This document shows positions 1 through 56,065 of a stretch of 64,000 bases of DNA, piece by piece. A program made the position numbers and the translations under genes. Origin of the DNA: Alphaproteobacteria bacterium (GTDB lineage: Bacteria > Pseudomonadota > Alphaproteobacteria > SMXQ01); assembly GCA_036500145.1 (NCBI GenBank), contig DASYCO010000055.1:42515-106514 (forward strand), in the 5' to 3' direction. Under the pieces are notes generated by a model that was given only the letters and a program-made list of their open reading frames with translations, did no database searches and was not told the origin of the DNA. The number at the start of each line of letters is the position of its first letter. The first letter of the stretch is position 1.

Positions 1-611
1 TCTAACAGACTTTGGGCATCCGTTAAGAGATATGGACGCGTTACGAGGGGGCCATGCTTCTCAGTACTCCGTGTTAAAAGTTCGTCCGCGGTTTCACGTT
101 CAATATTTCTATCAAAATCTGCACCAAGATACTTTTCAGTAATTACGGCTGTAATATCGTCTGCCACGCGATCATGAAGCTCATCCGCGGTGGAATAATA
201 GCTAAGAGTAGATCGCGACGACGCGTCATCGATCATAACCTGAAGGCGCTGATCACGACTGTCTGACGAGCGCAATATATAAAAAATGGTATCGATCTTA
301 AGGTCGCGCGCGTATCGAAACTCGTCCTCGAGTCCCGATATATGCATCCCGTTAGCATCGTCGATGTAGCCATAACCGTCGCGATAGAATGCCACCATAA
401 TCTGCGACGCACGCAACTCGGAGAGATACAACTCGCGCGCCGGGTAGGGGCGAGCCCCTACATGTTCAAATAATACTGGTGTGTGCCTTATCTGATTGAT
501 TGCAGCTCGAGCAACCTTGCGCTCATCGCTACATTCTTGCAGCCGCGAACTGACAAAAATCCTTAGCTTGCTTTGAACGGCGTGGCGAGTGATCCCCTTA
601 GACGGCACCAT
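1..611 (-). CDS. DUF4062-like (TIR/flavodoxin-like N-terminal domain) protein, N-terminal about 203 aa only; gene continues beyond window start
   Basis: Minus-strand ORF not in the supplied track because it runs off the left edge. ATG is the reverse complement of 609..611. Translation begins MVPSKGITRHAVQSKLRIFVSSRLQECSDERKVARAAINQIRHTPVLFEHVGARPYPARELYLSELRASQIMVAFYRDGYGYIDDANGMHISGLEDEF..., which fits the DUF4062 pattern (FxSS..(D/E)L..ER........I..........FE.......E.Y...L..CD.(F/Y)). It overlaps the stop of the upstream gene by 14 nt, consistent with coupling. Confidence 0.5.
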   Translation of the reverse strand, partial: MVPSKGITRHAVQSKLRIFVSSRLQECSDERKVARAAINQIRHTPVLFEHVGARPYPARELYLSELRASQIMVAFYRDGYGYIDDANGMHISGLEDEFRYARDLKIDTIFYILRSSDSRDQRLQVMIDDASSRSTLSYYSTADELHDRVADDITAVITEKYLGADFDRNIERETADELLTRSTEKHGPLVTRPYLLTDAQSLL

Positions 612-1716
612 AACCTCGACGATCGTAGAAGGCCTGAAGTGAGCTGAATTTTTTGAATTGGTGAAGATCGGCGCCGTCACGCGTTACCAATTCAGTAATA
701 TCGGCCCTGATTTGAGTGCAGGTGGCATCTAAGGAAGGTAGCGACGGTATTGATTTGCCATCGGCATACTCAACGCGATCCTCAATATGCTTCCAGATCG
801 TGTCGCGATACTTTTCATCTAAGGTTGCGTAATGCGGCGTGCCGTCACAAAGCTCCACACTAAGCATAAGATTTATCGCCGCCTGCTCAATCTGGCTACG
901 GCCGACAGTTTTGAAACCGGGGATTGCTTGTATAGAATCGACAAGGAGAGCCCGTCTAATGCGTTCGCGTGTGACGGGAAAAGCGGTGTCGATCGTCCGT
1001 CGCCTAGCGGCTGCATACTCGCGCGGTGACGGTTTTGGAGAAGCCGGACCGGCACCACCTGGCGGTCGTGTACGTTTTGCACGCGGATCGACCAACCAAT
1101 GATTGGGATCTTCTTCTTCTGTTCGTATTTTGATGTTGAATTTGATTATCGACGGAAGCCCTTCGATCCGCCCAATATTTTCTGGAATAAGTGGCGCACC
1201 TTTTGCGGGAAGTGTTGCAGCGCTGAGCACGACTGGTCCCAGTCCCGAATCACAATGTGACTTAAGCTGATGGAGGAAGGAATTTGTTGTGTCGTACTCT
1301 TTAATCCAAAACTGGCTAAGAAAAAGAGGCCGGGTTAATTGATGAGGGCCGAGCCGAAATATTGCTCGATCCGCCTCGGGTGAAATAACAAGAAAATATT
1401 TTCCATCTTTCTTAAGCAGAATTTGTAGATCGACAACCTCTCCGTCGGCTTCACAGCCCCATTTCTCGAAACTTTTGAATGCCGCGCGCATGGGTTCAGC
1501 GTTACGACAGACTAAACTTAGCCAGGGTACCGCACCTGGGTAGCCAGTAAGTCCGCCTAAAGCATAAGCGCAGCCGACAACCTCCGCCTTATGTAAGGCG
1601 GAGGCGAAACTGACGTCTGGTAAAAGGATTACGCCCTGTTGATCTCCGAGATCAAAGCCCCGGTTTTTATTCGTTCGATCTTTAGGAGTAACGCGGTGTT
1701 TGTTCTTTTTCCCCAA
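598..1716 (-). CDS. hypothetical protein (372 aa), no recognisable domain; upstream partner of the DUF4062 gene
   Basis: Single long ORF in a roughly 50% GC region. Its stop (598..600) overlaps the start (611) of the downstream DUF4062 ORF. No motif I can assign. Confidence 0.5.
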   Translation of the reverse strand: MGKKNKHRVTPKDRTNKNRGFDLGDQQGVILLPDVSFASALHKAEVVGCAYALGGLTGYPGAVPWLSLVCRNAEPMRAAFKSFEKWGCEADGEVVDLQILLKKDGKYFLVISPEADRAIFRLGPHQLTRPLFLSQFWIKEYDTTNSFLHQLKSHCDSGLGPVVLSAATLPAKGAPLIPENIGRIEGLPSIIKFNIKIRTEEEDPNHWLVDPRAKRTRPPGGAGPASPKPSPREYAAARRRTIDTAFPVTRERIRRALLVDSIQAIPGFKTVGRSQIEQAAINLMLSVELCDGTPHYATLDEKYRDTIWKHIEDRVEYADGKSIPSLPSLDATCTQIRADITELVTRDGADLHQFKKFSSLQAFYDRRGYGAV

Positions 1717-1737
1717 TGTCGCTCCCCCGTAACTGTC

Positions 1738-2242
1738 TTAAAGCAATTCTCCAGCCACGTTTTCCACGAACAATTCCCCATCGCGAATATAGCGCTGGAG
1801 CATGGCGTCAGATCTGTGTCCAGTTTGCGCACGAATTTTTGCATACGAGACACCAGCGGCGGCGGCACTAGTAACTAAACCTGCGCGGAGAGAATGCCCC
1901 GAATACGTCTTGCTGTCATAGCCTAGGGCCTGCACCCGTCTTTTAACAATACTGTTAACGGCATTTGCAGATAGTCGTGCATTCATTACAGCACCGTATC
2001 GGTTTACCGCCCGAAATTGGACCAGTCGCTATCCCGGCAGTTGAAAGCCAAGCGTAAAGCGCAGTTACGGGACAAGCTGACGATCTGCCGTATGGTATTC
2101 CTATCGATCTGCCGCGCCCTTCTTGGTCTGTTTTGCTTCGGCGCAGTTTGATAATTATGCCCTGCCTTACATTTTCGACATCATCGATATTCAATCCGAC
2201 GAGTTCGCTTCGCCGGAAAGCGCCAGAAAATCCTATCAACAA
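1738..2242 (-). pseudogene. int: tyrosine recombinase / phage-type integrase remnant (C-terminal catalytic domain only, split by a frameshift)
   Basis: Two overlapping minus-strand ORFs, 1955..2242 and 1738..1986. Together they carry integrase catalytic motifs: an R...ELxxL box, HSLRAG (the HxxR motif), and a C-terminal RYIRDGE containing the catalytic Tyr. There is no room for an N-terminal domain, since an upstream stop and the tRNA fragment and res gene follow within about 500 nt. Confidence 0.7.
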
Positions 2243-2566
2243 GACGGCTCGATCTCTAATCGCGAGCGGACTACTGCCGATTTCGTTAGATATTCGATTT
2301 GGGCGGGGTCCTCCAAATTAACCACATCCACATCGCAACCTGCGCTGCTGGCGAGGCCTCAAAGACGCTAGCCGCACTGAAAGCCAGCCCCGCAACACGT
2401 CTGGCGAAAGGCTCCAATTATCAGCAGTTGATGCTGATCCAAGTGTAGTTTGCAATTTCCATATGGCCGAATTATGCGGTCGAGGACTCAGTTAAAACTA
2501 ACAATATATTGATACCCGTCTCGGCAGATCCGAGATGTCTAGGAGCAAAAAACTATTCGCCTGCTT

Positions 2567-2612
2567 TTTCGTAATCAGTAGGTCCGCGGTTCAATTCCGC
2601 AAGCCGACACCA
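2567..2612 (+). repeat. 3' fragment of tRNA-Thr (anticodon loop through CCA); att-site remnant
   Basis: The sequence ttcgtaatcagtaggtccgcggttcaattccgcaagccgacacca matches the 3' 46 nt of the intact tRNA-Thr(CGT) at 55991..56065 with 2 mismatches. No 5' half (no acceptor-complement) is found upstream, so it is not a complete tRNA gene. Confidence 0.7.
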
Positions 2613-2748
2613 TCCTCCCCACGAAAATATCTAGGTTTTTCGACCAGAGCGTTTATCCACCTGAGGGTTCTTGACCCCTTTAACGAAATTGGTGGACGCA
2701 TAGCGTGCAAAAATATGTGCCGCAAATCCACCCTTCAGGTCAGCGGGC

Positions 2749-5433
2749 CTACGAATACTGCTTGAGCAGGAATTCCAGAGTCATGTTCTCGACAATCGTG
2801 TCGTGCGGGATAAGAGCATATTGCCAAGGTTTACCCCCGTATGATCGCGCGTGTTCGCTTGCCCAGGTGCACCATTGCAAAGCCACCTCGCGTTTCGCCA
2901 GCACGTCCTTGTCCTGCATCTGGGTCGCCATCTTCGGCTCCAGCATCAGGATTTTGTCTTCGGTCTCGGCGACGAAATCCGGTTGATACTCCGCATGGTC
3001 GTTGCCGTTACGATAGAACATCTGAAACTGCCCCTTCGCAGGCCGCAGCCATTTTTGCGCTTCACGCTCCAAGATCACTGCGAGTTTTCGTTCCGAGTCA
3101 GAATGAAATTTCGTCACGTTTGAAAGGCACTTGGAGAAGCCCCCAAACAAGTATCGAGCCATATTGCTCTTGTCCGCAGGCGGCACGCGATAATCCAGCG
3201 GCGCTTCTCGCAGAGCGGTGTAGGCGCTCTCCTTAAGTTCGGTGAATCCTTGCCGAACCTCATGATGATATTCGACCGCCTCATCCTTCCAGAAGTGGGC
3301 CTGCATCTGGGCATGAACAGCGCGGGCGATTTCGCGTTGATGCAGAGCGAGAACCTGGCTCGCCTCCTGTTCGGAGAGATAGCCCAACAGGTGTCGAACC
3401 ACCTGACCCGCCAGCTCGTAGAGCTGATCTGCGTGCTCGTCATAGGCGATGTCGGAGAAATCAATCAAGCCGCTAACGACATAGTCCTCAAGGTGTTCTT
3501 CAAGAAAGTTTCCTGGCGACAAGCCGATAATATCGACTTGGTCAGTCCGCAAATGCTTCGCCCAAAGTTCCTCGCTCGGCGCTGGGTAACGCACGCCCGA
3601 CAGATCAAGCGTGAAGGGCTTGAAGCCCGCCTTGACCTCTCCCTTAGGCATCACCGTGATGCGGGGAATATCAATCGTGCGCTCGACCATTAGTTTTGCG
3701 GTTGCTGCAATAACAGCCGCCATATCCGGTGCTGGCCTCGCCACGCCCTCAAGTTCCATCTGCTCGGGCTCGGGCTGGTACTGCTTCTGCACCTCACGGA
3801 CGACCTGTGCCTGCACTTCGGGCCGCGACAGATAGGAGACGCTCGGAACTTTGTCTGGTTCGCGCGCAAGTTTACGGAACGCATCATACGCCAGCCGCGC
3901 AACGCGCATCTCGTCGGGATCAGAAAATGCGGGCGTCGGGGAGGGACCAGAAGCCGTTGCGCTGTCTGCTCCTGGCGCGGACTGCAAACCGAGACTGCCC
4001 AGGATTGTTGGCGACGACACGACCGTCACCGTTTTACGCTCTAGATCGGCCTCTTCGAGTACCAGTTGCTTCAAGCGGACGGGAGAGTTGGGATTGTTGG
4101 CTTCGTCCACAATTTCCTGGAATCGGTCATGCGCAACAATATTGAGCCTGTCCACGGCGGTAACGCCCGTGCGTCTTCCGTAGGGCAGACGAAGGCCGCG
4201 CCCGATGCTCTGCTCGATAAGCGTTCGCGCATTGGCTGCGCGCAATGGGATGATCGTATAGAGGTTGGTGACGTCCCAACCTTCTTTGAGCATGTTGACG
4301 TGGATGACGATCTCGACCGGATTGTCGTTCTGTTCAACGGTCAACAGTTTCTCGATCGTCTCTTCTTCTTTCACGCTTGAATCGACCTGGATGACCTTAT
4401 CCGCGTAGCGAGCCTTGAAGAACGCCTCAGACTGAATCAAAGCCATCAACTCGGCTGCGTGGGTCGTGTCACGAGCGATCACGAGCACAAACGGCTTGAC
4501 GATGCGCACACCGTTTTCGCGGGCATATGTTTCCAAATCGACCTTCACGCTCTCATGAAGGCGAATGCCGTCTTCAAGCTTCAGAGTCTGGATTGCTTCT
4601 GGCGAGTTGCCCGCCGGATTGAAATCCCTCCGCGTGACGACAGCAGGCTCCTTGACGAAGGCATCCTCCATCGCTCGGGCGAGAGGGTAGTCGTAGATGA
4701 CATTACGAAACGCGACAGGACCGCGCGGGCTCTCGACGAACGGAGTTGCTGTCAGCTCAAGGCCGAGTATCGGCTTCAATTCGTTGATCGCCCGCATCCC
4801 TGCGGTTGCCCGATAGCGGTGCGACTCGTCCATCAGCAAAACGAGGTCCGGCAGGCTTGCCAGATAGTCGAAATAGCTCTCACCGATCTCTTCACGGAAG
4901 GAACGGATACGCGGCGAGCGCCCGCCGCGAACCTCGGACGAAATCTTGGCGATGTTAAAAATGTTGATCGTGGTGGGGAAAAGCGAACCACCTGATGCGA
5001 TCTGTCTCTCATAGGTTTCACCCGTCGTCAGAACGGGCGGCGAAATGGCAAATTCCGAAATTCCCTTGAACACATATTTCGGTGTGTTTGGCCTGAAGTC
5101 GGCAATCAGCTTGTTGTAGATGGTGAGGTTCGGAGCTAGCACGAAGAAATTGTCGATACCGTGCGCGACCTTCAAGTAGGTGATGAAAGCGCCCATCAAC
5201 CGCGTCTTTCCAACACCCGTTGCCAACGCGAAGCAAAGCGAGGGAAATTCGCGCTCAAAGTCCGCGACGCCTGGAAATTCACTTCGGATCACTTCCAGCG
5301 CTGAGGCCAAGTCCACAGATTTATTCGGCGGCGCAATTTCTGTGACGCGGTGGAGAATTTCGAGGCTACGACGCTGCGGCTGGCGCAAGCTCAAGCGACC
5401 CGAGATTGCGTTGACGTGACGAAGGGTGCTCAT
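2749..5433 (-). CDS. res: Type III restriction enzyme Res subunit (SF2 helicase-endonuclease), 894 aa
   Basis: Helicase motif I ATGVGKT, motif II LMDESH (DExH), TATP, and motif VI QSIGRGLR, in a ResIII-type N-terminal arrangement. It sits immediately downstream of a beta-class adenine MTase with a 4-nt ATGA overlap. Confidence 0.85.
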   Translation of the reverse strand: MSTLRHVNAISGRLSLRQPQRRSLEILHRVTEIAPPNKSVDLASALEVIRSEFPGVADFEREFPSLCFALATGVGKTRLMGAFITYLKVAHGIDNFFVLAPNLTIYNKLIADFRPNTPKYVFKGISEFAISPPVLTTGETYERQIASGGSLFPTTINIFNIAKISSEVRGGRSPRIRSFREEIGESYFDYLASLPDLVLLMDESHRYRATAGMRAINELKPILGLELTATPFVESPRGPVAFRNVIYDYPLARAMEDAFVKEPAVVTRRDFNPAGNSPEAIQTLKLEDGIRLHESVKVDLETYARENGVRIVKPFVLVIARDTTHAAELMALIQSEAFFKARYADKVIQVDSSVKEEETIEKLLTVEQNDNPVEIVIHVNMLKEGWDVTNLYTIIPLRAANARTLIEQSIGRGLRLPYGRRTGVTAVDRLNIVAHDRFQEIVDEANNPNSPVRLKQLVLEEADLERKTVTVVSSPTILGSLGLQSAPGADSATASGPSPTPAFSDPDEMRVARLAYDAFRKLAREPDKVPSVSYLSRPEVQAQVVREVQKQYQPEPEQMELEGVARPAPDMAAVIAATAKLMVERTIDIPRITVMPKGEVKAGFKPFTLDLSGVRYPAPSEELWAKHLRTDQVDIIGLSPGNFLEEHLEDYVVSGLIDFSDIAYDEHADQLYELAGQVVRHLLGYLSEQEASQVLALHQREIARAVHAQMQAHFWKDEAVEYHHEVRQGFTELKESAYTALREAPLDYRVPPADKSNMARYLFGGFSKCLSNVTKFHSDSERKLAVILEREAQKWLRPAKGQFQMFYRNGNDHAEYQPDFVAETEDKILMLEPKMATQMQDKDVLAKREVALQWCTWASEHARSYGGKPWQYALIPHDTIVENMTLEFLLKQYS

Positions 5434-7064
5434 GATGCATCGCCTTCATCAAAGAGGTTCGATTGAGATGCCTTTGGAGTCTTCGCCACATGCGGCAGAT
5501 TAGCGACGTTGAGGCTGTAGTCATCATGACCCCATTCGCAGCGAGTGCGAATGTGATTTGGAATTTTGCGAACTGTAATGTTCGACCACAGGTCGGCATT
5601 GCCTCGGTAAGCAGCGCACAGAATCAGCAAGGAGCGTCCTTCTCCAACTTCCTCGCTGAGCGCAGCTAACTCCTGCGGCCCCAAGGTCTGAGTAGTGACG
5701 TAGAAGAAATCGCTCTCGGACGAATGCCCCTGCTGCCAGTACACGCTTTCGCTTGGCGCATAGGTAAAGCCCTCCAGTTTGCACAAAGCCTGCGCTAGCA
5801 TGGCGGGGTTATACTTCTTCGAGATAACCTCACGGCCCCACTTGTCCTTTTCGAGGAGCGACGTTGCAAGCTCATAGTACCGGAATCCACCTCCGCCTTT
5901 CCAATCGACCAACTTGCTAACGCCACCTTCGTCGGCTCCGTCGATTACCTTTCGAAGGCGCGGAACGATATGTGTGGTGCAGTGTTCGCCAAGTTCTACC
6001 ATCACCCAACGACGGCCCATCTTATGAGCCACCGCTCCTGTAGTGCCAGATCCAGCAAATGAATCGAGCACGGTGTCACCAGGCAGCGTCGCCACCTCTA
6101 AAACACGCTGGATGATCTTCTCAGGCTTCGGCGTATCGAAGGTCTTCTCCCCTTGGAAAATTCCCTTCATTTCGGCGCTGGCATTTCGGGTGCTGCCCGC
6201 AAATTCATACGGCCACCAAGTCTGGGGAACAACGCCGTCTTTGACCTCACTTAAAAACTTCTTTTCGACGGGAAACTCTGCGTTCCCATCTTTGCCCCAG
6301 TAGATTCGCTTCTCCGCTTTCAACTTCTTCAACTCGTCCGGCGGCCTTCGCCACGAACTTCCTTTCGGCGGCCACACCTCGCGGCCAGCGTTATTGATCA
6401 AGGCGTAGTTGTCTCTCTCGCGAAATTCGGCTCGTGTGAGCGGGGTGCCCAACCAAGGCCCACGACTGTCACCATCAAGATTTTTGTAATTGGCGATCTG
6501 CTTTTCACTTCGTGGAATTAGATACGGCCTCCATGACTCGGATTTCTTGAACACGAGAACCATGTTGTGAGTTTGCGCGATCGTCGATGCATTATTTCCT
6601 GGTGTATCCTTCGACTGCCAAACGATATTTGCGACGAAGTTCGATCGTCCGAATATCTCGTCGCACAAAACCTTCAGATAGTGCGCCTCGTTGTCGTCGA
6701 TCGTGATCCACAGCGATCCGTCATCAGACAAAAGTCGGCGCATAATCTCTAATCTGTCGCGCATCAAACCGAGCCAAATTGAATGCTCTAGGCCATCGTC
6801 ATAGTGAGCAAATGCGCTGCCTGTGTTGTAAGGTGGGTCGATCAAGACGCACTTCACCTTGCCTGCGTAGTCGGCCTCTAGCGCTTTGAGCGCCAGCAGA
6901 TTGTCACCGTGGATTAGAACATTGTCGAAGATGTCGTCTTCGCCCCGACAAGCGGTGGAATGGTAGCTCTTCTCGGCATCCTCAATGAGAATACGAGGCT
7001 CCAAGCTCGGCCTGTTTTCTTTCCCGACCCATGTCAATTCGAGTTTTTGCTTCTTAGCCATCAT
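5430..7064 (-). CDS. mod: Type III restriction-modification Mod subunit (N6-adenine DNA methyltransferase, beta class), 544 aa
   Basis: Motif IV IDPPYNT lies N-terminal and motif I DSFAGSGTTG lies C-terminal, the beta-class order typical of Type III Mod. Coupled to res through the ATGA overlap. Confidence 0.85.
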   Translation of the reverse strand: MMAKKQKLELTWVGKENRPSLEPRILIEDAEKSYHSTACRGEDDIFDNVLIHGDNLLALKALEADYAGKVKCVLIDPPYNTGSAFAHYDDGLEHSIWLGLMRDRLEIMRRLLSDDGSLWITIDDNEAHYLKVLCDEIFGRSNFVANIVWQSKDTPGNNASTIAQTHNMVLVFKKSESWRPYLIPRSEKQIANYKNLDGDSRGPWLGTPLTRAEFRERDNYALINNAGREVWPPKGSSWRRPPDELKKLKAEKRIYWGKDGNAEFPVEKKFLSEVKDGVVPQTWWPYEFAGSTRNASAEMKGIFQGEKTFDTPKPEKIIQRVLEVATLPGDTVLDSFAGSGTTGAVAHKMGRRWVMVELGEHCTTHIVPRLRKVIDGADEGGVSKLVDWKGGGGFRYYELATSLLEKDKWGREVISKKYNPAMLAQALCKLEGFTYAPSESVYWQQGHSSESDFFYVTTQTLGPQELAALSEEVGEGRSLLILCAAYRGNADLWSNITVRKIPNHIRTRCEWGHDDYSLNVANLPHVAKTPKASQSNLFDEGDAS

Positions 7065-8905
7065 TGTCCTGCTGCGCTGCCTGCTTGGGCCTGCGTCGTG
7101 TTAGGTGTTGTCCAAATTTCTGCCTTCAGCGCGTCCAGCAGAATCTTGCAGTCGCCTTGCGTTTTGAAAACGGATTGAAAGTCGCGGGGAGAGCGCAAGG
7201 TCTGCACGCCTCCAGGTGCGACTTCATAGCTGGCGAAGCCTTTTGCCACGCTGATAGCGAGCAGTTTTTCGGCATAGTCCGTCACCGCTGCGGCAAGCGC
7301 CGCCTTCTCTTCAGCGGACAGGGTGAGAGCCTCTCCTTCTTCAGGCTTCAATCGGTTGAAGATGGCAGCGAGAACCACCCAACGCGCATTGCCGAAGAAC
7401 GATTTACTGGCGCCCATGCTCGCCCGTGCGGTGTCCTGAATGACTTGAAGCACAATTCGTTGCGATTGAACTGCGCGCCACACCGAACGCGCCGACAGAT
7501 TTGGCGGAAAAACATGTTCGTGACGGCTCCGAAGCAATTCCTCGGCTGGAAACACCATCTCTAGTGAGCGAAGTGAATCCCGATTGGCCGCCACGCGAGT
7601 GACGAGATCACAGTCATTCGTGTTTTTCAAACAGGCGCAGGCTGTCAGCGCCTCTTCCATGTTAAAGTTGTCTTGGTCGTTGTCTGGCGTATCTTCGTCG
7701 ATCTTGTAGTGATAGTCGACCTTATGCGGCTGAAGCGTGCGAAAGACCTGTTCGTGAAATTCATAGGCTCCGGCGAAGTCTTTTAATCCGACATGGTTTT
7801 GAAAATTCGCCGTTCGCGAAATGCGGTCGGCGAACACTCTGTCATCCTCGCACTTCTCAAGTGAAATAATTTTTATGAATGCAAAGCCAGTTGGCTTCGC
7901 GTCCGCCTTCGCTCCGTCGAAACATTTGACGATGGAGCCAAGAGTCTGTGCGCCGTTGATGATGGCAAAACCCTTCGCGGTAATCCGCTTTTTCTCTGCG
8001 TTGGTCCGATCTAGGTTGTTCAACTCCAAGCGGTCACAGTAGGCCGTAAGGCCATTGTTGAGATAGAAGAACAGGTCAGCTTCTTCGCTGATCGTCTTTT
8101 GAATCTCCTCATTGACGTCAGTGCGTCCCTTAAACCCTCGAAGATTTGCCGCCACTAATCGCTTCCCATGCGCGCGATGGAGGGCGTCGAGTCTCTCCAA
8201 GGAGACGAGCCCGTAGATCGTCTCGTGTGGCTTCGTGATCAAACCGGGGCAGATAATTTCAAGATCGACCGTATCGACACCGAGCGCTTCGCCGCCACCC
8301 GTGACCCAGTCGTTCAACGTGGTGAGATTGATTGAATGAAACTGAAAAAAGTCATCATCCGCGTCCTTTGAGACTTTCTTCTTGAGAGCCTCAAACAGCC
8401 GCTTCCGATCCTCGGAAATCAACGCCAAACCGGAGTAGCACAGGACCGCGCGAACACGAGTCGAGGCATTTTTCAGATGCGTCTCGATCTGTGGCAAGAT
8501 TTTCACCCAATGAGGGTTCGCCGCGAACGCCTTAAAGTTTCCCGCGAGCAAGTATTCCACGCCCGCGTTGAACTTGGTTACGTCACCCAAGTCCGGTTCG
8601 GTCAGCCCCGCATGAATGTACTTGGCTTGGACAAGCCACAACGTGTTAGTCGCGGGAGAAAAATAGACCCCGTCAATTCCGCCATCTCCCCCGCCGTCAA
8701 CCACAGAAATGGCCGCATCCGCGATCGATGCTCCGCCAAGCCTGTGTGCTGTAAACGCGGAGAGGGCGCGACTGAGGAAGTCACGCTCAAGCTGCTCGGC
8801 GTCCCCATTGGTCTTCTGCGGAACGTGCCCGTCGAACAAGGCGTGCAGTTTTGGTGGCAGGGCCAGTATTTCGACGGGACGATCCGGCATTACGCAATGT
8901 TCCAT
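7061..8905 (-). CDS. AIPR-family (abortive infection phage resistance) protein, 614 aa; alternative start at 8890
   Basis: GGGDGGIDGVYF and IINGAQT motifs, size about 600 aa, embedded in an RM operon. All of this is as I recall for Pfam AIPR, a family described as frequently found in RM operons. Its stop and the mod start form an ATGA overlap. Confidence 0.6.
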   Translation of the reverse strand: MEHCVMPDRPVEILALPPKLHALFDGHVPQKTNGDAEQLERDFLSRALSAFTAHRLGGASIADAAISVVDGGGDGGIDGVYFSPATNTLWLVQAKYIHAGLTEPDLGDVTKFNAGVEYLLAGNFKAFAANPHWVKILPQIETHLKNASTRVRAVLCYSGLALISEDRKRLFEALKKKVSKDADDDFFQFHSINLTTLNDWVTGGGEALGVDTVDLEIICPGLITKPHETIYGLVSLERLDALHRAHGKRLVAANLRGFKGRTDVNEEIQKTISEEADLFFYLNNGLTAYCDRLELNNLDRTNAEKKRITAKGFAIINGAQTLGSIVKCFDGAKADAKPTGFAFIKIISLEKCEDDRVFADRISRTANFQNHVGLKDFAGAYEFHEQVFRTLQPHKVDYHYKIDEDTPDNDQDNFNMEEALTACACLKNTNDCDLVTRVAANRDSLRSLEMVFPAEELLRSRHEHVFPPNLSARSVWRAVQSQRIVLQVIQDTARASMGASKSFFGNARWVVLAAIFNRLKPEEGEALTLSAEEKAALAAAVTDYAEKLLAISVAKGFASYEVAPGGVQTLRSPRDFQSVFKTQGDCKILLDALKAEIWTTPNTTQAQAGSAAGQ

Positions 8906-11748
8906 CGGATCGTGAAAAGGCTCTCGGCTGAAATGCTTTGCTCGAGCTTCCCTTCAATACTCGCAATCAGCTCGGAGCGCTGAGCGTCGATGCGATCTTG
9001 TGCATCGAAGAGTGTACGACGCTTGCTGTTCCGTTCCGTCTCTAACGCCTTGACGACCTTCTGCCCAGCGAGCTTCTCTTCTAGCGACAACGCCGCTGTC
9101 GCTGCGCGACGCGCTTCCTTGATCTGGCGATCAATCTCCTTGATCTCACGCTCTAGCCCAACCTTGAGGTCATCCGCCCAACCGTCCAATTTATCGGCTT
9201 CCTGCTCAAAGAACCGCGCATTGCGCTCGGATATGGCTCGACGAATTTGGGTTTGCTGCGTTGCTATCGATTGCGTGAGGATTGGAGTCACCGACGCAGG
9301 TGGCAAAGCGGGCTGAGAAACCGAGCCAGCTATGGTCAGCAGGCGAGTTGCCGCCTCTGCGCTTAGCGCGGCGCCTTCGTCCGTTGTACCTGCGAGCAAC
9401 AAATGGTCTTCGCTCTGACCAAGCGCCTCAACCGATAGTAAGGACACGGCTAACCAACCCGATTTTCCCACAAGTGGCTCGATCTGGGAAATTCGCCCTT
9501 CGTGGTTGGAATAGTCAAAGATCAGCTCAGCCGAGGGCAGCTCACGAGCAAGAGCACGCTGCACGATGGCCTCGCCTAGCGGGTGCTGAATGCGAAACAA
9601 GTGCGCCTCGCCAGTACGCCTAGGAAGCTCGTAAAGTCCCGTCGGAACGCCCTCACGGTCCACCCAATTAGGAATTAGGTTCAGCCTGAAAGACGATGTG
9701 TCGAGAAACTCGGCGTCATCAGCCAATTCATACGCCGCGAGCTTCATAAGCTGCTGCTCAAAGTGGCTGAGATGTAGCTTCGTGTCCTCATTCCGAAGTC
9801 TCAGCTTCTCGCGAACCTCATCATCGAAATTCTCGAACAGCTTTCGGCGTGCGTGCGTCATCGCCTCGTTGATCTCAAGATTCAGCTCTTGCTGGAGCTG
9901 ATCGAACGCGGACTTGATTTCTGCTGTCTTCCGGCACTGCTGATAGATTCCCGCAATGCGCTTCTCGAAATCGACCCCAGACTCGATGGCGCCAAGCACC
10001 TCATCGCTGGCTCCAAATACGCCTTCGAATAGCTGAAACTTCTCCGACAGGAGTTCGTAAACGCGTTGGTCTGCCTCATTTTTCTGATTAAGGAAGTTGA
10101 CGACAACAACATCGTGCTTCTGACCGTATCGGTGGCAACGGCCAATTCGCTGCTCGATACGTTGCGGATTCCATGGAAGGTCGTAATTGACGACCATAGA
10201 GCAGAATTGAAGGTTGATGCCTTCTGCGCCCGCCTCGGTCGCAATCATAATCCTTCCCTGCTCGCGGAAATAATCGACCAACGCGGAGCGCATATCTGCG
10301 GTCTTTGAGCCCGTGACTCGATCGGACCCCTCGTGACGAGACAACCATTCTTTGTAGATCGCTTTGGATTCTTCATCGGTATTCGTCCCGTTGAAGAGCA
10401 CGATCCGATCGGAAAACGGGCTGTCCCCGAGGACACGAAGCAAATAGGACTGAGTTTTACGAGACTCCGTAAAGACGATTGCTTTCTCGTCCGCGCCGAA
10501 CTCTCTCGCCTTCGCAAACCCCATTTCCAGAGCCTTGAGCAAGGCCCGGCCTTTGGCGTTCTGCTCAATAGAGGTTGCGAGGGCGGCAAACTCACGAAGT
10601 TCGGCAATCTCGGTTTCGAGCGCACGCTGGTCCGCCTCAGTCAGCAGTTCCTCGTCGTCGTCAGGCCACTCTTCCGCCGTTTGATCGAGCGCTTCGTAGT
10701 CTTCGTCGAGTTCCTCGGCCAGCGACTGCGTCGGTCTGCTCTTATCGAGCCGCTTTTGAAGTCGATTTGAAATTGATGAGAGAGCGCCCGCGATAGCGAA
10801 TGTGGATGAAGCCAGCAGCTTGCGAAGCACGAGCGTCATCAGAGAGCGCTGACTCGCAGGGAGAGCCTGGAGGTTGTCTCGCTGCAAGTATTCCGTGACT
10901 AGGTTATACAGTCGGTCTTCTTCTTCATCGGGGCTAAACTCCTCAAGGATGGCATGGCGTTTTGTATAAGGGACGTATGCCGTCACTTGTCGGCGCAATG
11001 TTCGGTGACAAATCGGCTTCAATCGCTCTCGCAGAATCTCAAACGTCCGCTCTTGTGAGAGATTGGCGAACTGTTCACGGAAGCTTTTCAGGTCGCCAAA
11101 AGCGTGCTCATCGATGAAGCTCACTAAGCCAAAAAGTTCCAGCAGCGAGTTTTGCAAAGGCGTCGCCGTCAGCAGCAGCTTGTGCCGCTCAGCAAGCGCC
11201 CCTTTTAGAGTGTTGGCGATCACGTTTGAGGGTTTATAGACGTTTCGCAGCCTATGAGCCTCATCAATTACTACCAAATCCCACGGGTGAGCGTGAACGT
11301 CTGCCGCCTTGTTGCGGGCAAATTGGTAGGAGCAGATCACTACGCTGTCCGCGCAGTCGAAAGGTCGGAAATGACCTGACTTTATGGCCGCGTTGTACGA
11401 TTTGGATTCGAGGATCGTGCAGGGGATGAAGAACTTCTCGTTCATCTCTTGATGCCACTGCTTGCGAAGGTTGGACGGGGCGATGATGAGCATGCGCCGC
11501 CTTCCCTCCGCCCAGCTCTGGGAGATGACGAGCCCCGCTTCAATCGTTTTGCCCAGGCCGACTTCGTCCGCCAGCAACGCGCCCTTTGACAGCGGCGATG
11601 CAAAAGCAAAGAGCGCGGCATCCACTTGGTGCGGATTCATATCGACCTGAGCGCCCGCGACGGCCACGGCCAACCGCTCGCTGCTATCGGAAGAACGGCG
11701 GCGCGTTAGATCACTGGCAATGTATTTGGAATGGTAGGCTGTGATCAC
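8890..11748 (-). CDS. SNF2-family (Swi2/Snf2) DNA-dependent ATPase/helicase with about 390-aa uncharacterised C-terminal extension ending in a coiled coil, 952 aa
   Basis: Motif I LADEVGLGKTIEAG, motif II VIDEAHRLRN, TATPLQNSL, C-terminal helicase lobe FTESR and QRIGRCHRYGQ. GTG start overlapping the stop of the RHH gene (GTGA). Its stop overlaps the AIPR start. Confidence 0.8.
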   Translation of the reverse strand: MITAYHSKYIASDLTRRRSSDSSERLAVAVAGAQVDMNPHQVDAALFAFASPLSKGALLADEVGLGKTIEAGLVISQSWAEGRRRMLIIAPSNLRKQWHQEMNEKFFIPCTILESKSYNAAIKSGHFRPFDCADSVVICSYQFARNKAADVHAHPWDLVVIDEAHRLRNVYKPSNVIANTLKGALAERHKLLLTATPLQNSLLELFGLVSFIDEHAFGDLKSFREQFANLSQERTFEILRERLKPICHRTLRRQVTAYVPYTKRHAILEEFSPDEEEDRLYNLVTEYLQRDNLQALPASQRSLMTLVLRKLLASSTFAIAGALSSISNRLQKRLDKSRPTQSLAEELDEDYEALDQTAEEWPDDDEELLTEADQRALETEIAELREFAALATSIEQNAKGRALLKALEMGFAKAREFGADEKAIVFTESRKTQSYLLRVLGDSPFSDRIVLFNGTNTDEESKAIYKEWLSRHEGSDRVTGSKTADMRSALVDYFREQGRIMIATEAGAEGINLQFCSMVVNYDLPWNPQRIEQRIGRCHRYGQKHDVVVVNFLNQKNEADQRVYELLSEKFQLFEGVFGASDEVLGAIESGVDFEKRIAGIYQQCRKTAEIKSAFDQLQQELNLEINEAMTHARRKLFENFDDEVREKLRLRNEDTKLHLSHFEQQLMKLAAYELADDAEFLDTSSFRLNLIPNWVDREGVPTGLYELPRRTGEAHLFRIQHPLGEAIVQRALARELPSAELIFDYSNHEGRISQIEPLVGKSGWLAVSLLSVEALGQSEDHLLLAGTTDEGAALSAEAATRLLTIAGSVSQPALPPASVTPILTQSIATQQTQIRRAISERNARFFEQEADKLDGWADDLKVGLEREIKEIDRQIKEARRAATAALSLEEKLAGQKVVKALETERNSKRRTLFDAQDRIDAQRSELIASIEGKLEQSISAESLFTIRWNIA

Positions 11749-15113: not shown

Positions 15114-15189
<76 letters not shown>

Positions 15190-15569
15190 AAACATCCCGG
15201 GTCGGAAAGCCGGCGGCGCCCGAGGGCGGGGGGCCGGTTTTCGAGGGCCGGATAATGTGTTGAGGGCCCTTTCCTTGTCAAGCGCCGCCAGCAGCTTCCG
15301 GCGACTGTTTCCCAATCATCACAAGGGCGTGGCGAAAAGGCCGCCGCCCGGGCCCCGGCCTTGCGCCAAAGGGGCTGCGCCGCTAGGGTTGCGGCCATCC
15401 GCCGGGCCTTCAAGGGCTTGGGCGAACAGCACAATTTCCCGCGCACGCGTGCCGACGGCAGCCAGGATCGCCAAAAGCGGCTGCCCGAGATGACTGCCTG
15501 ACCGGGGCGCGCCCTGGCTTTCGTCGACCCGCAAGTCGACGGGCCGCCGGCGCCGATAGAGAGGACGCG

Positions 15570-15851
15570 ATGAACTCCCTGCTGATCCTGATCGACACGG
15601 TGATCAACCTCTACATCTGGCTGCTCATCGTCTGGGTGGTCATGAGCTGGCTGATCAACTTCAACGTCATCAACACGCACAACCGCCTCGTCTACATGGT
15701 CACCGACTTCCTCGACCGCATCACCGAGCCGGTCCTGCGGCCGATCCGCCGCGTGCTGCCGAACATGGGCGGCCTCGACCTGGCGCCGGTCGTGCTCATC
15801 CTGCTGCTCTACTTCCTGCGCAACCTGCTGTTCGAATACTGGCCGCGCTGA
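15570..15851 (+). CDS. yggT: YggT family membrane protein
   Basis: 93-aa hydrophobic protein: MNSLLILIDTVINLYIWLLIVWVVMSW...LAPVVLILLLYFL, typical of YggT. Confidence 0.75.
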   Translation: MNSLLILIDTVINLYIWLLIVWVVMSWLINFNVINTHNRLVYMVTDFLDRITEPVLRPIRRVLPNMGGLDLAPVVLILLLYFLRNLLFEYWPR

Positions 15852-16178
15852 TTGGCTGACCGCTATCGGCGGACCGCCACGGGCCTCGCCCTGGCCGTGC
15901 GCGTGACGCCGAAGGCCGGGCGCAACGCCATCGCAGGCTGGCGCGCCGGCAACGGCGACGGCGATGGCGGGCCGGAACTGGCCGTCGCCGTCACGGCGGC
16001 GCCGGAGGACGGCAAGGCCAACGCCGCCGTCGCCGCCCTGATCGCCGAGGCGCTCGGCCTGCCCAAGTCGGCGGTCGCCGTCGCCCAAGGCGGCAAGGCC
16101 CGGCACAAGATTCTGCGCATCGAAGGGGACGCCGACAGCCTGTGCGCCCGACTCGACGCCGCAACCGACAAGACCTGA
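15852..16178 (+). CDS. DUF167 (YggU-like) protein; TTG start as drawn, alternative starts possible
   Basis: LAVRVTPKAGRNAI...GKANAAVAALIAEALGLPKSAVAVAQGGKARHKILRIEG matches DUF167. Immediately follows yggT, as in many genomes. Confidence 0.6.
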   Translation: MADRYRRTATGLALAVRVTPKAGRNAIAGWRAGNGDGDGGPELAVAVTAAPEDGKANAAVAALIAEALGLPKSAVAVAQGGKARHKILRIEGDADSLCARLDAATDKT

Positions 16179-16193
16179 CATCTGGAGAGTTTC

Positions 16194-17102
16194 ATGGCTG
16201 ACGCGAAGATCATCGACGGCAAGGCATTCGCCGAAGGCCTGCGCGCGCGGGTGACCGCCGCCGCCGCCAAGCTGAAGGCCGAGCACGGCCTCGTCCCCGG
16301 CCTCGCCACCGTGCTGGTCGGCGAGGATCCGGCGAGCCAGGTCTACGTCCGCAACAAGGGCACCCAGACCCAGGCGGCGGGCATGAACTCCTTCCACCAT
16401 CCCCTGCCGGCGACGACGAGCCAGGCCGAGCTGCTGGCGGTCGTCGACAAGCTCAACAAGGATCCCGCCGTGCACGGCATCCTGGTGCAGCTGCCGCTGC
16501 CCAAGCAGATCGACCCGGAGACCGTGATCGCCGCCATCGACCCGGCCAAGGACGTCGACGGCTTCCATGTCGTCAACGTGGGCAAGCTCGCCGCCGGCAT
16601 CAGCGACGGCCTCGTGCCCTGCACGCCGATGGGCTGCCTGATGCTGCTGAAGGACGCGCTCGGCGACCTCGCCGGCAAGGAAGCGGTCGTGGTCGGCCGC
16701 TCGAACATCGTCGGCAAGCCGATGGCGCACCTGCTGCTCGGCGAAAGCTGCACCGTCACCATCGCCCATTCGCGCACCAAGGACCTCGCCGCCGTCTGCC
16801 GGCGCGCCGACATCCTCGTCGCCGCCGTCGGCCGGCCGCTGATGATCCAGGGCGACTGGATCAAGCCGGGCGCCGCGGTGATCGACGTCGGCATCAACCG
16901 CGTGCCCATTGAACCGAAAGAGGGCACCGAGCCGGGCAAGACCAGGCTGGTGGGCGACGTCGACTTCGCCGCCGCCCAGAAGGTCGCGGGCTTCATCACG
17001 CCGGTGCCGGGCGGCGTCGGCCCCATGACCATCGCCTGCCTGCTGCGCAGCACGCTGCTCGCCGCCTGCGGCCAGCACGGCATCGCCGCGCCCGTGATTT
17101 AG
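16194..17102 (+). CDS. folD: bifunctional methylenetetrahydrofolate dehydrogenase/cyclohydrolase FolD
   Basis: [60 protein letters not shown]. Confidence 0.9.
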
Positions 17103-17221
17103 CCCGCGGCTTCGCCGCGCCGGTTGTCTCATCCACGGCTTCGCGTGGGGGGACTCGCGCCACGCTCCTGCACGTCGCTTAGGAGTCTTGTCTCTTAAGG
17201 AATGATTTATCCAAAACGGGC

Positions 17222-17518
17222 ATGAAACTTCTGGCGGCGACTGTGCGTTGCCATACAATCGCATGTGACGCCGCGAACGGTCGGCGTCGTCGGCGAATCG
17301 TCATTTCCGGGGGAACCGTGAACAATCGCAAGGGCACCACGCTGGCCCTCCTGCTCATCGGGCTGGTCAGCATCAACTTCTTCTATCTGTCGGACATGCT
17401 GTTCGACGAGGACCAGATCGTGCTCGGCGTCAAATCGGTCGCCTGCATCATCGTCGCCAACGTCATCACGTTCCTGGGCATCGTCGCGGTCGTTCGCGAC
17501 AAGCCGCCGCGCCGCTGA
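17222..17518 (+). CDS. small hypothetical membrane protein (true start may be the internal GTG/Met; uncertain)
   Basis: A lower-GC pocket inside high-GC DNA. Encodes hydrophobic TLALLLIGLVSINFFYL...IIVANVITFLGIVAVV. No homology assignable. Confidence 0.25.
   Translation: MKLLAATVRCHTIACDAANGRRRRRIVISGGTVNNRKGTTLALLLIGLVSINFFYLSDMLFDEDQIVLGVKSVACIIVANVITFLGIVAVVRDKPPRR

Positions 17519-55990: not shown

Positions 55991-56065
<75 letters not shown>

Follow-up and report, generated by a model that had tools for sequence, protein, structure and literature searches.

A gene pair encoding a NIR-STAND-TPR-type protein and an unannotated co-translated partner: a candidate anti-phage module at an alphaproteobacterial island edge

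Described DUF4062/NIR systems and the present gene pair

The DUF4062/NIR domain has been reported as the NADase effector of several bacterial anti-phage systems. In Swarozyc, it gives abortive infection after activation by the phage portal (bioRxiv 10.64898/2026.05.01.722283), and it is also the effector of Evangelion (10.64898/2026.06.25.731849). Le Mouellic et al. described the NIR NADase in PsAvs2 (NIR-STAND-TPR), in Vulcan, and in the two-gene system Vesta (bioRxiv 10.64898/2026.09.04.749371). The domains characterised to date hydrolyse NAD+ to ADP-ribose (ADPR) and nicotinamide and are sufficient effectors by themselves (10.64898/2026.05.01.722283; 10.64898/2026.09.04.749371); the catalytic glutamate is E97 in KpSwz and E108 in PsAvs2. 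Here, we analysed a 64,000-nucleotide stretch of DNA from an Alphaproteobacteria bacterium (assembly GCA_036500145.1, contig DASYCO010000055.1, positions 42,515 to 106,514; hereafter, the window), which begins with two overlapping genes. Gene A encodes a 372-aa partner protein and gene B, of which the window holds the 5' part, encodes an NLR-like protein with an N-terminal DUF4062/NIR domain. The pair is probably a mobile two-gene anti-phage (abortive-infection) module, in which gene B would provide a NIR-STAND-TPR switch and gene A its obligate partner subunit.

Like the PsAvs2-type proteins, gene B combines an N-terminal DUF4062/NIR domain that carries the conserved catalytic Glu with a P-loop NTPase in the centre, probably of the STAND type, and TPR-like (tetratricopeptide) repeats at the C-terminal side. 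The pair also shares with them the defence-island context and the expected output, i.e. NAD+ depletion and abortive infection. As PsAvs2 is among the published NIR systems, the NIR-STAND-TPR architecture is an already known kind of defence protein. PsAvs2, however, is a single gene, whereas gene B is always preceded by a co-translated partner of 340-400 aa and has an additional variable region of ~ 320 aa after the TPRs, without recognised relatives.

The remaining NIR systems differ more in layout. Swarozyc, Evangelion and Vulcan, single-gene systems with DUF4062 and an auxiliary or HEAT domain, have the DUF4062 effector in common with gene B; however, they possess neither an NTPase switch nor a partner gene, and a phage protein activates them by binding directly to the auxiliary domain. 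Vesta, formed by the small NIR protein VstA and the alkaline phosphatase VstB, is also a two-gene NIR operon with a partner strongly associated across genomes. VstB is dispensable for defence, whereas gene A encodes neither a phosphatase nor any other Pfam domain; lacking the phosphatase, the pair is not Vesta. Moreover, VstA is small and has a C-terminal ligand-binding domain but no STAND or TPR part, unlike the 1172-aa gene B protein with its NTPase and TPR regions.

A second polypeptide has been reported before as a requirement or a built-in component of Avs-type STAND proteins. Avs2-trypsin acts with a separately encoded metallo-beta-lactamase (MBL) nuclease (bioRxiv 10.64898/2026.08.25.746987), and SeAvs7 takes in EF-Tu as a structural component (PMC13581612). 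In the former, proteolysis activates a partner that can be recognised as a nuclease, and the effector fused to the STAND protein is a protease, whereas the predicted effector of gene B is a NADase. In the latter, EF-Tu is a host housekeeping protein, whereas gene A is dedicated, co-encoded, and predicted to adopt an unmatched fold. A partner gene like gene A is mentioned neither in the preprints on Swarozyc, Evangelion and PsAvs2/Vulcan/Vesta nor in the text of the 2026 survey of 589 STAND clades (PMC13581612). The pair is probably a variant with two components, so far undescribed, of an established type of anti-phage system.

Linkage, junctions and co-divergence of the two genes

The two genes lie on the minus strand as the open reading frames (ORFs) 598..1716 and from 611 onwards, and overlap by 14 nt (598-611), as an earlier note on this DNA had read them (Table 1). 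Within region 1-611, the two remaining frames are stop-rich. The window stretch of gene B covers the DUF4062/NIR domain, a predicted TIR-like NADase, including the motif ISGLEDEF with Glu97, and the start of the linker toward the P-loop.

The earlier note had further suggested checking whether gene A homologues and DUF4062 genes co-occur in other genomes, and co-occurrence was seen in both directions. All six gene A homologues from a word-indexed search (loci L001-L009) directly precede a gene that passes the Pfam DUF4062 threshold. A metagenome scan, which used a narrow six-sequence gene A alignment and reached close relatives, added 13 further gene A loci, and the NIR-NLR gene was next in every one that had downstream DNA. 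The reverse scan, from gene B to its partner, covered one genome per species and gave 80 loci. At all 32 genome loci whose match continued well past the NIR domain, a gene A homologue was found immediately upstream, on the same strand, and ending at the start of the NIR gene. Another 47 loci, mostly from Actinomycetota and Chloroflexota, matched only within the N-terminal 200-350 residues, and none of them had the partner upstream. The 80th locus, L065 (Polyangiaceae), retains just the gene A C-terminal domain, immediately before its DUF4062 gene. Among the assessable loci, the pairing of gene A with full-length gene B relatives is thus obligate both ways. The 32 paired loci belong to Alpha- and Gammaproteobacteria, Acidobacteriota, metagenome-assembled genomes (MAGs) of Deltaproteobacteria, Lentisphaerae, Longimicrobiales, Neomarinimicrobiota, and a Leptospira assembly; the pair is patchily distributed over at least seven phyla. 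We also observed a separate, apparently larger DUF4062 clade (L041-L089) in Microbacterium, Agrococcus, Asanoa and Geodermatophilus; its proteins are ~ 850-900 aa long, with PF25872, NB-ARC and TPR, and the partner gene is never upstream.

The two genes also diverged in parallel. Over 35 distinct pairs, the pairwise identities of gene A and gene B were correlated with Pearson r = 0.97, a value reached in 0 of 2000 Mantel permutations. No third conserved gene was found in the flanks of the pair. Gene A and gene B make up one unit of inheritance, transfer and divergence. A Rosetta-stone search returned a single joined A-B protein, P0234 (496 aa, representative library), in which gene A ~ 1-283 is connected to gene B from ~ 77; it looks like a deletion across the junction and was rejected as a genuine fusion.

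The junctions of ~ 45 related loci nearly all overlap, in the form of 14 nt, ATGnnTGA (8 nt) or ATGA (4 nt). The gene B ATG sits inside the codons for the conserved C-terminal Gly-Tyr-Gly/Ala of gene A (e.g. GGC TAT GGC TGA). Due to this dual coding, a part of the conservation at the gene A C-terminus may reflect constraint at the nucleotide level and not protein function. Coupled translation would give the two products a fixed stoichiometry and allow their assembly soon after synthesis. At many of the ~ 45 junctions, a GGAG-like Shine-Dalgarno sequence was seen a few codons earlier (equivalents of window 598-615).

The two proteins and their proposed interplay

The gene A product had been called an orphan with no recognisable domain. 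Its lack of a family match was confirmed: Pfam, NCBIfam, PADLOC and PHROGs gave no significant match, only noise (eIF-1a, E 0.12; Cas12a, E 0.06), and a Pfam scan of gene A with 116 relatives (117 sequences) yielded just two single-member matches and no phosphatase. The term orphan did not hold. The word-indexed search found five other relatives, and an exhaustive hidden Markov model (HMM) search of 1.84 billion representatives returned 308 cluster representatives at E ≤ 1e-3 and 225 at E ≤ 1e-10, with lengths mostly of 340-400 aa. Every relative that was looked up is a 'hypothetical protein' or unnamed. Judged by these matches, the gene A product is a member of a family without annotation that comprises several hundred clusters. 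In 2.9 M IMG/VR contigs, searched by two conserved peptide patterns, no gene A relatives were found.

The AlphaFold2 model of gene A, based on the 117-sequence alignment, had a pLDDT of 93.4 and a pTM of 0.85, with lower pLDDT at residues 1-20 and 205-230. Four segments were distinguished. The first is the N-terminal tail, basic and modelled with low confidence, in which RGFDxG is a conserved motif (residues 19-24); it is followed by an alpha/beta domain (~ 28-200), a Pro/Lys/Arg-rich linker (~ 205-230), and an all-helical C-terminal domain (~ 231-367). Conserved residues in the alpha/beta domain are Y51, W86, D91/D93, Y107, K139, D142, K192 and E200, and in the helical domain R238, F246-P247, R252, Q275, Q278, N282, E316, Q335 and D339. 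A PDB sequence search with the gene A family profile gave no matches at E ≤ 10, and the predicted fold has no similar solved structure in the PDB; the modelled fold is thus confidently predicted yet unmatched among solved structures. A homotypic (death-like/effector-associated-type) domain common to gene A and gene B was considered and rejected (hhalign probability 0.2%).

The conserved residues of gene A bear on a relay, Thoeris-like or Avs2-trypsin-MBL-like, which we regard as improbable. There, gene A would be a second, downstream effector, engaged through a NAD-derived signal from the NIR domain or by direct recruitment or activation by gene B. The nearly invariant polar residues of the alpha/beta domain (Y51, W86, D93, Y107, K139) would suit a catalytic or ligand site. 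TIR-family domains can make signalling nucleotides, as in Thoeris, and a two-component STAND system with a separate effector exists in Avs2-trypsin with its MBL nuclease. Osinski et al. also remarked that some DUF4062 proteins share operons with a variety of enzymes and that their function may go beyond NAD+ depletion. However, the DUF4062 domains characterised to date produce ADPR and nicotinamide and need no further effector. In addition, sequence searches with gene A gave no domain of the SLOG, Macro, SIR2, nuclease, protease or membrane-disrupting kinds, and its fold has no match in the PDB. Thoeris-like systems use a separate effector of the SLOG, Macro or SIR2 type, so the absence of these domains sets the pair apart from them. 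Tight translational coupling, moreover, suggests a stoichiometric complex over a relay by diffusible signal.

The full gene B was recovered from the identical public contig L001 of an alphaproteobacterial MAG, which encodes a 372-aa protein identical to the gene A product and annotated as 'hypothetical protein'. Gene B occupies L001:1987-5505 and encodes 1172 aa, counted from the ATG equivalent to window 611. Extended leftward in this way, as the earlier note had suggested, the partial ORF turned out to code for a DUF4062/P-loop STAND-like NTPase/TPR protein with a variable C-terminal region, and not for a housekeeping enzyme. The DUF4062 match claimed for the window fragment was borne out by Pfam PF13271 (E 6.4e-18, 65.2 bits against a cut-off of 24.7, profile positions 1-82 of 82), and the full-length protein also exceeded the gathering score, with 62.0 bits over residues 16-100. 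A profile of the gene B DUF4062 domain matched the PDB chain of the KpSwz DUF4062 (10wc_A) with E 0.005. In this alignment, Glu97 (ISGLEDEF) falls on the KpSwz catalytic position 97, the residue replaced by Ala in the deposited structure (E97A). E97 was invariant in alignments A3 and A6, and E95, D96 and E97 were each kept in at least 90% of 35 distinct family members. By its HMM match and catalytic Glu, gene B is assigned to the DUF4062/NIR family.

The P-loop region of gene B (~ 196-300) contains the Walker A sequence GPPGIGKTT (213-221) and the Walker B sequence LVIDECE (285-290). The Walker A residues G213, G216, G218, K219 and T220, Walker B D288, and R317 were each kept in at least 90% of the 35 family members. 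Pfam matches in this region were below the cut-offs for nSTAND3 (25.0 bits against 27.2, with just 32 residues covered), NACHT (15.5 bits) and AAA_22 (21.7 bits), while the L002 orthologue scored 32.4 bits with AAA_22, over the cut-off of 27. By phmmer, gene B weakly matched the NB-ARC region of a plant TIR-NLR (E 0.085). With the Walker residues conserved and Glu97 on the KpSwz catalytic position, both enzymatic modules (NIR and NTPase) look intact. The P-loop with Walker A and B lies between the N-terminal effector and the C-terminal repeats, the tripartite layout of STAND proteins as far as it can be read from the sequence.

TPR_12, TPR_1 and TPR_7 passed the Pfam cut-offs at residues 698-757. 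The last ~ 320 residues had no family match and no PDB sequence relative (the C-terminal 328 aa were searched). Among the 35 family members, the TPR segment 651-750 was unusually conserved (mean column identity 0.43-0.49), and residues 851-1000 formed the most variable stretch (0.18-0.24). The conserved TPR segment fits a surface for a constant ligand, plausibly gene A or its RGFDxG tail, and the variable one fits a separate, fast-evolving, phage-facing surface. In PADLOC-DB 2.0, gene B matched no Avs model at E ≤ 0.1, which places it outside the Avs1-Avs5 families by sequence; it hit just a generic TPR model (E 7e-7) and, with the P-loop only, PDC-S73, MkoC and mad8.

We propose that, in an uninfected cell, the gene A and gene B proteins would form an inactive complex. 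Gene A would dock on gene B by its conserved C-terminal helical domain, possibly also by inserting the RGFDxG tail into the conserved TPR groove. The C-terminal helical domain is suggested as the docking part, since it is all that L065 and L101/L102 keep of gene A (Table 1). A phage cue, sensed by the variable C-terminal region of gene B, the alpha/beta domain of gene A, or both, would permit a nucleotide-dependent oligomerisation of gene B. The NIR domains would be gathered in this way and convert NAD+ to ADPR and nicotinamide, and growth of the infected cell would halt before the phage cycle is completed. The NADase activity and the abortive-infection role of the gene B DUF4062 domain are ascribed by analogy, from the literature on other members. 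We infer that gene A binds gene B through a docking domain, and that its role would be regulatory or sensory and not enzymatic; it is most likely a regulatory or sensor subunit, i.e. an adaptor, a guardee, or a brake that is lifted when a phage infects.

A toxin-antitoxin-like explanation is, in our view, unlikely. Gene A would then be a dedicated inhibitor of gene B, and its loss (by degradation, titration, or stopped synthesis after host shut-off) would trigger defence or plasmid/island addiction, with no phage ligand needed. The inhibitor-first order with a stop/start overlap, present in ~ 45 loci, is the classic arrangement of type II toxin-antitoxin systems, which are likewise mobile and inherited as a unit, with the upstream gene overlapping the downstream 'toxic' one; the strict linkage and co-divergence of gene A and gene B fit as well. 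The ~ 115-130-aa C-terminal helical domain that stands alone in L065, L101 and L102 could be a minimal neutralising module, and the disordered basic/Pro-rich segments of gene A (1-20 and 205-230) are reminiscent of many protease-labile antitoxins. Nevertheless, gene A, with 372 aa, is far above the typical antitoxin size, its well-conserved alpha/beta domain would be left unexplained, and no DNA-binding domain (HTH, RHH, AbrB) was detected in it. The 'toxin', in turn, would be a 1172-aa regulated NTPase-sensor protein that retains a complete NTPase switch, together with the TPR array and a rapidly changing C-terminus, the hallmark of a ligand-sensing STAND protein, and PsAvs2 autoinhibits without a partner. 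By sequence, the pair fits the type II systems in gene order and overlap only.

Returning to the anti-phage module, a bolder version of it is possible, although we hold it only tentatively. Gene A would be a co-translated subunit with a new fold that defines a 'paired' bacterial NLR, either as a guardee or decoy, analogous to the plant guard model, or as a new class of effector or adaptor, and the pair would represent an undescribed defence system in at least seven phyla.

Island context and significance

The earlier note had placed the pair at the edge of an island, in a position typical of defence or conflict cargo. The G+C content is 50% at the gene pair vs 65-70% beyond ~ 15 kb, so the term 'island edge' is correct, and an integrase remnant (1738-2242) and a tRNA scar (2588-2612) are found next to the pair. 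The integrase fragments overlap out of frame and form a pseudogene, which we treat as context outside the module. ARAGORN detected no tRNA gene at 2588-2612, and Rfam nothing; the fragment differs at 2 of 25 positions from the 3' end of tRNA-Thr(CGT) (55991-56065, minus strand, 53 kb off). It is likely an attachment-site scar at the right border of an island segment. As the fragment and the tRNA-Thr are on opposite strands, they were rejected as a simple direct-repeat attL/attR pair, and the true partner of the fragment is probably located beyond the left window end. No promoter-like site was found before gene A, where the promoter/terminator scan of 1-2800 was not above shuffled expectation; an Rfam scan of 1-8000 also gave no result beyond shuffled expectation.

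Defence-related genes were found on both sides, in agreement with the proposed placement. To the right, four overlapping ORFs form an operon (2749-11748) that abuts the tRNA scar and looks like a Type III-like restriction-modification unit extended by the SNF2 and AIPR genes. Further on, the G+C content steps from ~ 0.59 to 0.66-0.70 near 15 kb, at tRNA-Ala. This step, together with the serine recombinase and tRNA-Ala, suggests a second, separately integrated island segment at ~ 2.6-15.1 kb. Beside tRNA-Ala, in the high-G+C part, a 694-aa ORF (15180-17264, minus strand) had no Pfam match at E ≤ 1e-5. To the left of window base 1, L001:5652-11742 holds island genes beyond gene B, including Septu and an Mrr-family nuclease. 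PADLOC, proposed in the earlier note for the extended locus, recognised Septu there and had no model for gene A or gene B.

Table 1. Coordinates of the gene pair, its surroundings, and atypical pairs on related contigs (window positions unless a contig is named)
Feature	Position	Strand	Details
Gene A (372-aa partner protein)	598..1716	minus	ORF with TTG start at 1716, TAA stop at 598-600
Gene B, 5' part (residues 1-203 of the 1172-aa NLR-like protein)	1..611	minus	ORF with ATG at 609-611, open to base 1, 203 codons
Gene A/gene B overlap, translational-coupling junction, 14 nt	598..611	minus	Read from sequence
Gene A leader	1717..1737	minus	GGGGGAG Shine-Dalgarno at 1722-1728, 5 nt before TTG; directly 3' of the integrase-fragment stop codon
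Tyrosine integrase fragment	1738-1986	minus	Pfam Phage_integrase, E 2.8e-8, profile positions 103-167
Tyrosine integrase fragment	1955-2242	minus	Pfam Phage_integrase, E 0.084, profile positions 32-66
Isolated tRNA 3'-end fragment, 25 nt	2588..2612	plus	T-arm, acceptor stem, CCA; 0 chance matches expected
ResIII restriction subunit	2749-5433	minus	
N6/N4 DNA methylase	5430-7064	minus	
AIPR abortive-infection protein	7061-8905	minus	Weak NCBIfam match to MzaE (MZA system), E 9e-12, far below cut-off
SNF2-family helicase	8890-11748	minus	
Large serine recombinase, 555 aa	13263-15189 region		Resolvase + Recombinase; adjoins tRNA-Ala(CGC) 15114-15189
Septu: PtuB-like HNH (281 aa) and PtuA (516 aa)	L001		PADLOC PDC-M01A/B and PtuA, E down to 1e-211
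Further genes: 400-aa Mrr_cat nuclease; 407-aa no-family protein; DUF5681 protein; ParB_N + N6_N4 methylase gene	L001		
Partner C-terminal domain only	L065:3526-5133		Upstream frame open for 536 codons, nothing recognisable N-terminal to the domain
Partner C-terminal domain only	L101:3491-3856 and L102 (metagenome contigs)		121-aa ORF before a DUF4062 gene open to the contig end; unrelated genes upstream
Decayed pair	L100		Frameshifts in both genes

The flanks of the pair elsewhere were variable and often mobile or defence-related. In L002 and L003, the pair comes after a DUF2924 and serine-recombinase cassette. A survey of 112 ORFs at 34 loci found Gabija (2-3 loci), SIR2_2, OLD-type TOPRIM, AAA_21/AAA_15 ATPases, FRG, integrases and TrwB, and also many unrelated genes, including ordinary metabolic ones.

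The latter are among the observations compatible with a non-defence role, which we judge highly improbable. Gene B would be a STAND signal-transduction or regulatory NTPase, akin to the MalT/AfsR-type TPR regulators, and gene A its cofactor in a process unrelated to phages. The TPR region of gene B does show weak NCBIfam matches to AfsR/NsdA-type regulators, and many STAND clades are non-defence (PMC13581612). However, a DNA-binding output domain is lacking in gene B, which has a predicted NADase domain with intact catalytic Glu as its N-terminal output. The pair is patchy over its phyla with no conserved synteny, and in the window it is part of an island of low G+C content, flanked by an integrase remnant and by further defence systems. 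For NIR genes in general, an enrichment near defence genes has been reported, 20% vs 3.9% expected (bioRxiv 10.64898/2026.09.04.749371).

Several points weigh against the anti-phage module as proposed. Defence genes adjoin just some of the surveyed loci, and the counts are raw tallies. The STAND assignment of gene B depends on the Walker motifs and sub-threshold Pfam matches, and no PADLOC model recognises either protein. The C-terminal-only partners in L065, L101 and L102 may be decay products, and L100 is clearly decayed. Finally, Y51, D91, D93, Y107, K139, D142, K192 and E200 are a possible active site; with such conserved polar residues, gene A may be an enzyme or effector instead of a regulator.

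Not until 2026 was DUF4062/NIR known to be an immune NADase; human TEP1, NWD1/2 and NPHP3 also contain this domain. Apart from the one pair with a dispensable phosphatase (Vesta), the bacterial NIR systems reported to date consist of one protein each. The kind of protein that gene B represents is already known; what is new is an invariably associated, co-translated and co-evolving partner, with several hundred such pairs in at least seven phyla, and gene A offers a confidently predicted fold without a solved relative. The pair is a candidate for a new named defence system, and a test case for how a second subunit, be it a guardee or decoy, an inhibitor, or an adaptor, may control or extend NLR-like switches.

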